From assembly GCA_038257035.1 (NCBI GenBank), contig JBBSJT010000048.1:1-17023 (forward strand): a DNA stretch of 17,023 bases, in the 5' to 3' direction. The DNA comes from Chlamydiia bacterium. Lineage in GTDB: Bacteria > Chlamydiota > Chlamydiia > Chlamydiales > Parachlamydiaceae. A program made the position numbers and the translations under genes. The notes under the pieces were generated by a model. It made no database searches and had not been told where the DNA came from. It worked only from the letters and a program-made list of their open reading frames with translations. Every line of letters starts with the position of its first letter. The first letter of the stretch is position 1. Positions 9,611 to 11,030 of the stretch are shown one piece after another.

Positions 9611-9639
9611 TTGACAAAAATTGTTAACTAGATTAGAAT
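9611..9639 (+). promoter_or_regulatory. Sigma70/sigma66-type promoter
   Basis: TTGACA (9611-9616), 17-bp spacer, TAGAAT (9634-9639), with AT-rich upstream sequence. Confidence 0.85.
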
Positions 9640-9669
9640 TATTTTTTAACCTTAAAAGATGTTATTTAA

Positions 9670-9735
9670 ATGAGTCGTTCACAGTTTCCAGCCTACTTTT
9701 TCTTTTTTAAGATACCCGATTGGCGGAAGGCTTGA
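9670..9735 (+). CDS. Attenuator leader peptide MSRSQFPAYFFFFKIPDWRKA (21 aa)
   Basis: Translated by hand. It has five Phe, one Tyr and one Trp, including a YFFFF run, and lies between the promoter and the terminator upstream of an aromatic amino acid permease. Confidence 0.85.
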   Translation: MSRSQFPAYFFFFKIPDWRKA

Positions 9736-9760
9736 ACGTGCTTGTAAATAACAAGTGATT

Positions 9761-9790
9761 AAGACCCCGCTAAAAGCGGGGTTTTTTTTT
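9761..9790 (+). terminator. Attenuator terminator hairpin upstream of the permease
   Basis: Stem accccgct (9764-9771)/agcggggt (9775-9782) followed by a T9 run (9782-9790). Confidence 0.9.
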
Positions 9791-9824
9791 GCCTAAAAAT
9801 CGATATAAATTAATGGATAAAGCG

Positions 9825-11030
9825 ATGTATAAACAAATTGGAGCAATACTGCTCGTAGCCGGTACTTGCATTGGAAGTGGAATGATAGCCCTTCCCTTGG
9901 TACTTGCAAAAATTGGTCTAATTCCAAGTATTTTCTTAATGATTTCAATATGGATTGTGATGTATTTTACTTCACTCATCAATTTGGAGCTTAACTTGAG
10001 CGCAAGACATGGACTTTCCTTAGGAAAACTTGGAAGGCTCTACTCTGGAAAGGTTGCAGAATTGATTGGGACAGTTAGTCTAAAGCTTTTATCATACTCC
10101 CTGTTGGCTGTATTTATTTATGGGGGAACCTCTATTTTTAAGGAAATGATAGAATCGAAATTGGAATTGAAATATTCATTCAATTTTTTAGCCACAGGTT
10201 TTGCTTTTATTTCAATGATTTTACTTTTGTTACCCATAAAGTGGATCGATTATTTCAATCGTTTTTTATTCATTGGTTTAATCATTGTGGTGGCTGTTTT
10301 AATCATCGGTTTGAATTTAACAATCGATTGGTTTGAGTTGCCATTAATTTCAGAGCAATCTTCTGATCTATCAGTGTGGGCAACTTTAATCCCTGTAGTT
10401 TTTACTTCATTTGGATTTCAAGTCATCTTCCACACGTTAGCAAATTATTGCAAAATGGATTCAAAAATGCTTAAGCGCACTTTTTTTTGGGGAAGCTTAA
10501 TACCGGCTATTGTTTATATTGTATGGACATGCAGTATTTTAAGTGTAGTATATCAAACTAATCCACTATTTTACCAAGAAATGGCTTCAGGAAATGCTGA
10601 AATTGGTGAATTAATCCAAGTGTTAAGTGGAATTGCGAAATGGCAATCCGTACAACTTCTAATTTGGGTAGTTTCATTACTTGCGATTGCAACTTCTGTT
10701 ATTGGCGTTGGGGTTGGCTTATGCGACTCTTTTAATGGGATGTTGAGTAGAAAAGTTGTTAACTTAAAAGCGCAAATCATTCTTGCATCGATCATTACGA
10801 TATTGCCAGCCTATGTGGTAGTGATACTAGTACCAAATGCGTTTATAACTGTTTTGGGCTTTGCCGGTATGATTTTAGCAATCATTGCCGTGTTAATGCC
10901 TGTTTATCTTTTTATTAAAATGAAAAAAAATAAATTTCACTATCCTGAATTGAAAAAAAACTATTTGATTCTGTTTAGCTTTTTGGTAGCTTTACTTGTC
11001 ATTGTTTGCGAAGTCTTCAATATGCTATAG
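9825..11030 (+). CDS. tyrP: Aromatic amino acid:H+ symporter (HAAAP family, TyrP/Mtr/TnaB-like)
   Basis: GAILLVAGTCIGSGMIALP, IPVVFTSFGFQ and LAIATSVIGVGVGL motifs with about 11 TM segments. Start placed at ATG 9825 (alternative 9813) because the TTG at 9789 overlaps the terminator U-tract. Substrate is not established. Confidence 0.88.
   Translation: MYKQIGAILLVAGTCIGSGMIALPLVLAKIGLIPSIFLMISIWIVMYFTSLINLELNLSARHGLSLGKLGRLYSGKVAELIGTVSLKLLSYSLLAVFIYGGTSIFKEMIESKLELKYSFNFLATGFAFISMILLLLPIKWIDYFNRFLFIGLIIVVAVLIIGLNLTIDWFELPLISEQSSDLSVWATLIPVVFTSFGFQVIFHTLANYCKMDSKMLKRTFFWGSLIPAIVYIVWTCSILSVVYQTNPLFYQEMASGNAEIGELIQVLSGIAKWQSVQLLIWVVSLLAIATSVIGVGVGLCDSFNGMLSRKVVNLKAQIILASIITILPAYVVVILVPNAFITVLGFAGMILAIIAVLMPVYLFIKMKKNKFHYPELKKNYLILFSFLVALLVIVCEVFNML

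Follow-up and report, generated by a model that had tools for sequence, protein, structure and literature searches.

The window analyzed here is a 17,023-nucleotide stretch of DNA from a Chlamydiia bacterium of the family Parachlamydiaceae (assembly GCA_038257035.1, contig JBBSJT010000048.1, positions 1 to 17,023). Directly upstream of a gene for an aromatic amino acid permease, it holds a compact unit made up of a promoter, a short open reading frame (ORF) with a run of phenylalanine codons, and an intrinsic terminator. From sequence comparison and modeled RNA folds, we put the probability that this element is a functional Phe/Tyr leader-peptide (ribosome-mediated) transcription attenuator at roughly 85%. 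Such an attenuator would report the charging of tRNA-Phe, and probably that of tRNA-Tyr as well, and would thereby gate a monocistronic aromatic permease gene. The mechanism is a textbook one and adds nothing to the classical model; what appears to be new is the family of sequences, its occurrence in the phylum Chlamydiota, and the range of genes controlled. Few regulators are known in Chlamydiota, and here a compact canonical attenuator in 25 genomes ties together three kinds of aromatic amino acid genes. The element offers a new RNA family fit for curation and would provide a testable handle on how host supply is sensed by amoeba symbionts in which the final steps of Phe and Tyr synthesis are missing.

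A preliminary description of the window, made from the sequence letters, had named a promoter, a leader ORF, and a GC-rich stem followed by nine T residues (T9) ahead of the permease, and each of these is present (Table 1). The leader ATG at 9670 lies 31 nt past the -10 hexamer, and the frame closes with TGA at 9733 to 9735. The terminator stem (9761 to 9785) has 11 pairs, 6 of them G-C, and a loop of 3, with the T9 run at 9782 to 9790; at 9761 to 9790, it ranks first among the 11 terminator-like sites of the window. From the end of the T run it is 34 nt to ATG 9825, which was picked as the start of the permease (MYKQIGA...) by comparison with orthologues; an alternative in-frame ATG lies at 9813, and the ORF as listed begins earlier, at TTG 9789. 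A promoter scan of the forward strand from 9640 to 9825 listed no promoter-like site. Since the genes flanking the attenuator and permease are on the opposite strand on both sides, the unit is monocistronic, and no other gene can lay claim to the terminator. The promoter at 9611 to 9639 is one of three sites in the window that match 11 of 12 consensus positions, and since the 79 sites counted across the window do not exceed the chance level given by shuffles (65.2 +/- 7.8), it carries weight only in context. A TTGAC-type hexamer is visible by eye at a similar distance in several relatives. The transcript is predicted to start near 9646.

Folded without constraints, the RNA from 9646 to 9795 is unusually stable (-46.3 kcal/mol, z = -4.57), a stability reached by 0 of 200 dinucleotide shuffles. 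It forms a long imperfect helix of 9660 to 9693 with 9722 to 9753, in addition to the terminator, and in the full fold 9660 to 9668 also pairs with 9745 to 9753. Within this helix are exactly the pairings between segments 1 and 2 that had been read from the sequence beforehand, i.e., cgttca (9676 to 9681) with tgaacg (9733 to 9738), ttcc with ggaa, and gcc with ggc. The very stable terminator prevails in full-length constrained folds too, so the decision must be kinetic, as in the classical cases. The effect of a ribosome was modeled on a transcript cut before the 3′ arm of the terminator, with a mask of 30 nt standing for the ribosome. When no ribosome is placed on this cut transcript, the 1:2 pairing forms (-31.1 kcal/mol) and 0 of the 6 core bases of the terminator 5′ arm are paired upstream. 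When the ribosomal A site is placed at Phe10, Phe11, or Phe12, a 2:3 antiterminator forms (-19.4 kcal/mol) in which 6 of 6 arm bases are paired: TTGGCGG (9720 to 9726) faces CCGCTAA (9767 to 9773), GGCTTGA (9729 to 9735) faces TTAAG.CC (9759 to 9766), and the hairpin at 9739 to 9757 is enclosed. The antiterminator with an enclosed hairpin that had been proposed from the letters is thereby reproduced. With the ribosome at the leader stop, segment 2 is covered and 1 of 6 arm bases is paired.

These folds suggest how the unit might work. Transcription would start near 9646. With Phe and Tyr plentiful, the ribosome would reach the stop codon at 9733 to 9735 and cover segment 2 (9720 to 9738); segment 3 would then pair with segment 4, and RNA polymerase would terminate in the T9 run, at about 9790. 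Were the leader to go untranslated, segment 1 (9672 to 9693) would hold segment 2, likewise leading to termination. When Phe-tRNA or Tyr-tRNA is scarce, the ribosome would stall at codons 9 to 13 (9694 to 9708), covering segment 1 and stopping short of segment 2. Segment 2 could then pair with segment 3 before segment 4 is made, no terminator would form, and the permease would be transcribed. We infer leader translation, termination near 9790, the response to amino acids, and, as set out below, the substrate of the permease.

The element is conserved well beyond the window. A DNA search of 60 relatives recovered the leader region in four other genomes, three of which have it ahead of permeases 67 to 71% identical to that of the window, while in G010 it precedes another gene. 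A covariance model (R1) built from 5 copies with 73% mean column identity matched 22 of the 73 genomes in the window's GTDB family at E <= 0.01. An in-frame aromatic leader ORF was present in 20 of these 22; the matches in G069 and G009 are not attenuators. Across the order, R1 matched 9 of 150 scored genomes at E <= 0.001. Two of these matches are gene-end terminators and seven are real, namely those in G000 and G002 and in five genomes from four other families (G117, G147, G144 with two copies, G203 with a tandem, and G042). In total, we count 30 copies in 25 genomes, in which conservation of the element extends over some 150 nt. Phe-rich leader ORFs, which the preliminary description had proposed to look for upstream of homologous permeases, recur with the element, and the leader is conserved. 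The names attached to the closest public loci are those of Chlamydiae, Parachlamydia, Parachlamydiaceae, and Waddliaceae assemblies.

True R1 matches scored 44 to 160 bits, with the exception of three second or divergent copies at 32 to 37 bits (in G203, G042, and G074), which overlap the range of plain terminators (up to about 40 bits) and were accepted on the strength of their leader ORF, segment 2, and context. With model R2, applied to 151 genomes, first copies stood clearly apart: every match scored either 98 bits or more, or no higher than 40.3 bits. Matches at or below about 40 bits in other families (L056, L057, L060, L069, L070, and L086 to L098) are ordinary gene-end terminators with no leader ORF and were set aside; one 38.3-bit match in G147 lies outside the weak matches that were inspected. 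There was no convincing copy in 27 sampled small genomes (1.0 to 1.2 Mb) of family f35, where the weak matches inspected are plain terminators; judged by size alone, these genomes would be Chlamydiaceae-like.

Across these copies, the aromatic cluster is specific to one reading frame. ATG-started leader ORFs were found by script in 29 of the 30 copies, and the 30th starts at GTG. Among the 29 leaders, codons for F, Y, or W make up 172 of the 185 cluster codons in the ORF frame (F 121, Y 48, and W 3), compared with 56 and 70 in the other frames. Chlamydial clusters are 4 to 9 codons long, and Phe and Tyr codons interchange within them (TTT 78, TTC 43, TAT 29, and TAC 19). Trp18 of the window leader (TGG, 9721 to 9723) lies inside segment 2; relatives have R at this place, and W occurs just in those with T in alignment column 120. 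Given its position within segment 2 and the R of most relatives, Trp18 reflects a constraint on the RNA and is not a sensing codon. The earlier suggestion that the leader senses Phe/Tyr rather than Trp fits both the cluster composition and the location of Trp18.

One alternative concerns the signal itself: the attenuator might respond to Trp by way of codon 18, to translation stress in general, or to Phe only, the Tyr codons being silent. We regard a different signal of this kind as improbable, at about the level of a long shot. There is one Trp codon in the window leader, and 3 of the 185 cluster codons in relatives are Trp, but Trp18 is not conserved as Trp, and a stall there, inside segment 2, would favor termination. 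A response to Phe alone has a parallel in aroR of Corynebacterium glutamicum, a Phe-Tyr-Phe leader for which a review describes transcription as affected by Phe limitation only and not by Tyr availability (PMC11802643). Against this, of the 172 aromatic codons in the clusters, 48 are Tyr, and in G074 and G082 Tyr predominates in the cluster, which would be hard to explain if Tyr were unread. For the window copy itself, with 4 Phe codons and 1 Tyr codon, a Phe-only response is possible; for the family, we favor an attenuator that reads Phe and Tyr.

Spacing is also largely fixed. Counted from the first base of the last codon of the aromatic cluster, segment 2 begins 16 nt later in 20 of 29 copies, that of the window included. 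The stop codon starts 14 nt after segment 2 begins in 20 of 29, the distance in the window being 11 nt. This geometry is what the model needs: a stalled ribosome would end just short of segment 2, and a terminating ribosome would cover it. Outside the aromatic cluster, the leader peptide is poorly conserved and its C terminus changes frame between copies. Segment 2 holds the near-invariant core of the family, GGCGG(G)AGG. The frame in which this core, GGCGGGAGG, is read varies, giving R-R-E in most copies and A-G-G in G002 and G144b, and falling after the stop in G028. Since GGCGGGAGG is kept whatever frame reads segment 2, the constraint is on the RNA. We also observed a UACCC motif just 5′ of segment 2 (TACCC at 9714 to 9718 in the window; columns ~105 to 112 of alignment A2) that most copies retain even though the frame in which it is read differs (I-P, L-P, and Y-P); it is unpaired in the predicted folds.

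Such frame and spacing patterns bear on a second alternative, in which a U-rich structured leader acts untranslated, as a protein or metabolite switch or as a constitutive partial terminator, and the Phe-rich ORF is a by-product of a T tract. A T run would give Phe codons in any frame, composition alone often pairs the terminator arm, and the 2:3 helix shows no covariation. However, the aromatic enrichment is confined to one frame (172 of 185, against 56 and 70), and clusters like the YFYFYY of G074, or YWYYF, are aromatic solely in the ORF frame. Furthermore, the ATG, the stop, and the spacing are conserved, and no riboswitch or other Rfam family matched at threshold. An untranslated leader is therefore an explanation to which we give very little credence, and we retain a translated leader as the basis of the proposed attenuator.

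The switch itself was examined in the relatives with masked folds of 28 of the 30 copies, the other 2 having an ORF start outside the match. With a stalled ribosome, at least 5 of 6 arm bases were paired in 28 of 28 copies, and when the ribosome was moved to the stop, no more than 4 of 6 were paired in any of the 28. In the model-fitted alignment A2, 91.5% of stored-structure cells pair. The consensus GCCU:AGGC core of the 1:2 pairing is paired in 85.5% of cells and the 2:3 core in 96.6% across the 30 copies, while the terminator helix is 96.1% paired, with both-sided changes at 2 pairs. The middle hairpin, GCTTGT...ACAAG, is conserved in most copies. Covarying stems had been proposed as something to look for in homologous leaders, and covariation is seen in the terminator helix (columns 210:236 change from A-U to G-C in 10 rows) and not in the 2:3 helix. 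In the divergent copy of G042, GGCUUGG faces CCAAGCC; here both sides have changed, as noticed by eye, and this change does not enter the alignment count.

Several observations weigh against attenuation as proposed here. In the 2:3 helix, 0 pairs vary on both sides and shuffles equal the observed value, the helix being nearly invariant, so that its support comes from conservation and folding alone. Composition helps the pairing: when the spacer was shuffled, at least 5 of 6 arm bases still paired in 27 of 100 trials for the window copy and in 4 to 53% of trials over the 28 copies (mean, 27.6%). Since the copies are related, 28 of 28 overstates their independence. In 12 of the 28 cut transcripts, the antiterminator forms even without a ribosome, indicating that the segment 1 brake, strong as it is in the window copy, does not hold in every copy. 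The window copy also departs from its relatives in its segment 2 core, which reads GGCGGA and not GGCGGG, and in its Shine-Dalgarno-like sequence, a weak AAGA 10 nt upstream of the leader, where relatives have a clearer one (AGG, AAGG, or GAGG). Finally, five orthologous permeases (60 to 77% identity) have no attenuator within 1,200 nt upstream, which suggests that control by the attenuator is dispensable rather than obligatory. On the other side stand the masked folds, the conservation of the unit in 25 genomes, the frame-specific aromatic cluster, and the fixed spacing, which together support the pheL/trpL-type logic first put forward in the preliminary description.

The genes that follow the element are consistent in kind. 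In all 25 genomes, the unit lies directly upstream, on the same strand, of genes for aromatic amino acid transport or biosynthesis. Counting tandem copies once gives 26 units, of which 11 lie directly before an orthologous permease, 2 before a permease past a longer spacer, 5 before a class I/II aminotransferase past a conserved spacer of 380 to 440 nt, and 8 before a gene of the DAHP synthase family. A prephenate dehydratase gene comes next in 5 of these 8 (Pfam confirmed in two). Target genes were confirmed with Pfam for 10 representatives and otherwise identified by tblastn to the window permease or by eye. Tandem attenuators, each with its own aromatic leader ORF, were seen before DAHP synthase-prephenate dehydratase operons in G075, G064, G074, and G203, and possibly in G042. 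The 380- to 440-nt spacer between attenuator and downstream gene (G010, G088, G086, G090, G117, and G096) contains two overlapping small ORFs. One encodes 39 to 40 amino acids and ends in K-x-L-S; the other encodes 51 to 60 amino acids with a Phe-rich C terminus such as FFFFSFFSFSPF, and the motif CGATTTAG occurs twice in the spacer. No Rfam family matches this spacer, and its ORFs may represent a second, different Phe-sensing leader or a small protein.

A third alternative, which we consider very improbable, is that the stretch from promoter to terminator is a small gene in its own right, encoding a small RNA or a hydrophobic peptide of 21 residues, with the permease transcribed separately. 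The unit does have its own promoter, a strong terminator, and a conserved block of ~150 nt, and terminated leader RNAs can act in trans in other bacteria, as described for rnTrpL (PMC7968998). Against this, the 34 nt between T run and ATG 9825 hold no listed promoter-like site, genes for aromatic transport or biosynthesis follow the unit directly and on its strand in every case, and the peptide is poorly conserved outside its aromatic cluster, with a C terminus that shifts frame. In addition to its part in attenuation, the ~145-nt leader RNA left by termination might have a role in trans. More tentatively, and with rather less than even confidence, we propose that in environmental, amoeba-associated Chlamydiota of several families this one type of attenuator constitutes an aromatic amino acid regulon. 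Import by the permease would be coordinated with synthesis by DAHP synthase-prephenate dehydratase and the aminotransferase, the attenuator sometimes standing in tandem or before a second Phe-rich ORF. The attenuator would be an old one within the order, and the reduced Chlamydiaceae would lack it. If true, such a regulon would be the first clear cis-acting amino acid sensor in the phylum and a direct readout of how a symbiont perceives the host supply of Phe and Tyr.

The permease matches PF03222 at 207.3 bits against a cutoff of 22, covering residues 8 to 400 of 405, and its subfamily is predicted to carry Phe and/or Tyr. The window genome is 95.8% complete and has chorismate synthase, and neither prephenate dehydratase nor prephenate dehydrogenase is detectable in it at that completeness. 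The window organism is thus probably dependent on imported Phe and Tyr, a dependence that would be consistent with an importer gated by tRNA charging. This genome has four more Trp_Tyr_perm paralogues, and none of them is preceded by a leader of this type. GC-rich inverted repeats of cttcttcgcg/gcgaagaag units recur in several intergenic regions of this genome, including regions upstream of Trp_Tyr_perm paralogues (L001 2770 to 3060, L002 2830 to 2960, and L003 3400 to 3540).

The closest permease homologues outside Chlamydiota are from Rickettsia (50 to 61% identity). The preliminary description had raised the prospect that attenuator and permease were transferred together from Proteobacteria. 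We found no support for this, as the element is also found ahead of biosynthetic genes in relatives, and the permease homologues of Rickettsia and Pseudomonadota at 50 to 61% identity have no attenuator copy. A quick tree of 25 permease rows, from which 4 fragmentary rows (L079 to L082) were left out, places the orthologue clade apart from the paralogues (SH-aLRT 100). Relationships inside that clade lack resolution, so that neither a donor nor an order of gain and loss can be assigned. Among the Rickettsia permease records (L080 to L083), at least one copy has internal stops and others match partially. An intact copy labeled Pseudomonadota (L078) falls inside the chlamydial clade, in this quick tree with poor support.

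Elsewhere in the window are a chitinase-like protein, two methyltransferases, and a tRNA gene (Table 1). A protein of 487 residues (12291 to 13754, reverse strand) has a eukaryote-type F-box domain (PF00646, 31.7 bits), of a kind known from amoeba-associated bacteria, and would be compatible with an amoeba symbiont.

Table 1. Positions of the predicted attenuator-permease unit and of other features in the window
Feature	Position	Strand	Basis or remark
-35 hexamer TTGACA	9611-9616	+	11/12 consensus match with 17-nt spacer
-10 hexamer TAGAAT	9634-9639	+	Promoter scan
Leader ORF MSRSQFPAYFFFFKIPDWRKA, 21 codons + TGA	9670-9735	+	Read from sequence
Segment 1	9672-9693	+	Partner of segment 2 without ribosome
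Regulatory codons Tyr9-Phe10-Phe11-Phe12-Phe13 (TAC TTT TTC TTT TTT)	9694-9708	+	
Segment 2 TTGGCGGAAGGCTTGAACG	9720-9738	+	Overlaps leader codons 18-21 and stop
Middle hairpin TGCTTGT/ACAAGTG	9739-9757	+	Inside antiterminator loop
Segment 3, terminator 5′ arm and loop bases	9759-9773	+	Pairs with segment 2 or segment 4
Segment 4, terminator 3′ arm (to 9785) and T9 run (9782-9790)	9775-9790	+	
Trp_Tyr_perm (HAAAP-type) permease, 401 aa	9825-11030	+	Pfam PF03222
CBM2 + GH18 (chitinase-like) protein	5279-7048	+	
Two Methyltransf_24 proteins	7147-7872 and 8010-9341	-	
tRNA-Thr(TGT)	12073-12145	-	

A leader-peptide attenuator before a transporter gene is known from Salmonella (mgtL-mgtA), and in Escherichia coli the aromatic permease genes tyrP and mtr are controlled by TyrR and TrpR. 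The window element has the sequence features of the attenuator class: a leader ORF, a cluster of related codons, a terminator, and a predicted, mutually exclusive antiterminator. At gathering thresholds, Rfam returned no match at the window site or in 10 related loci. The best subthreshold matches were to Trp_leader (RF00513; 31.9 bits, below its gathering threshold of 41, mainly from segment 2 to the terminator) and Phe_leader (RF01859; 27.8 bits and E = 0.0085, below its gathering threshold of 55), so the element falls outside both families as Rfam delimits them, and subthreshold matches to leaders and small RNAs were driven largely by the terminator. A full-text literature search found no paper describing a Phe/Tyr attenuator in chlamydiae. 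The Rfam and literature searches agree with the earlier remark that no such attenuator was known on a chlamydial transporter.

The closest known systems in design are pheL-pheA and pheST of E. coli, which share with the window element a leader ORF containing consecutive Phe codons, alternative pairings among four segments, and an intrinsic terminator, and which respond to the charging of tRNA-Phe (PMC11802643 and PMC3082878). The chlamydial element differs from them in the mixed Phe/Tyr clusters found across its family, in its phylum, and in its target, a permease instead of pheA or pheST. It shares the 1:2/2:3/3:4 logic of E. coli trpL, without the tandem Trp codons. The aroR leader of C. glutamicum, reported to precede aroF (DAHP synthase) and to act by ribosome stalling (PMC11802643), is likewise a mixed aromatic leader, and relatives of the window element also lie before DAHP synthase genes. 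This likeness is one of description; aroR belongs to Actinobacteria, whereas the chlamydial clusters run to 4 to 9 codons and also control a transporter and an aminotransferase. Attenuators before transporters have a further precedent in the His attenuators of Firmicutes (PMC9413887), which concern another amino acid and another transporter family.

Within the phylum, a 2010 survey recorded almost no predicted Chlamydiae attenuators with an associated function (PMC2965389). Table S8 of Naville and Gautheret (2010) gives five predicted attenuators for Protochlamydia amoebophila (secY, udhA, cutE, trpD, and pc1402), none of them on a permease, DAHP synthase, or aminotransferase gene. The only proposal of a leader-peptide attenuator that our literature search found for Chlamydiota is the putative TrpL in the trpR-trpB spacer of Chlamydia trachomatis (PMC3937554 and PMC7755916). 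TrpL is atypical, with 59 residues and nonconsecutive Trp codons, and is described as a poor predicted attenuator that is unvalidated (PMC7755916). By comparison, the window element is compact and canonical, and it is conserved across several families.

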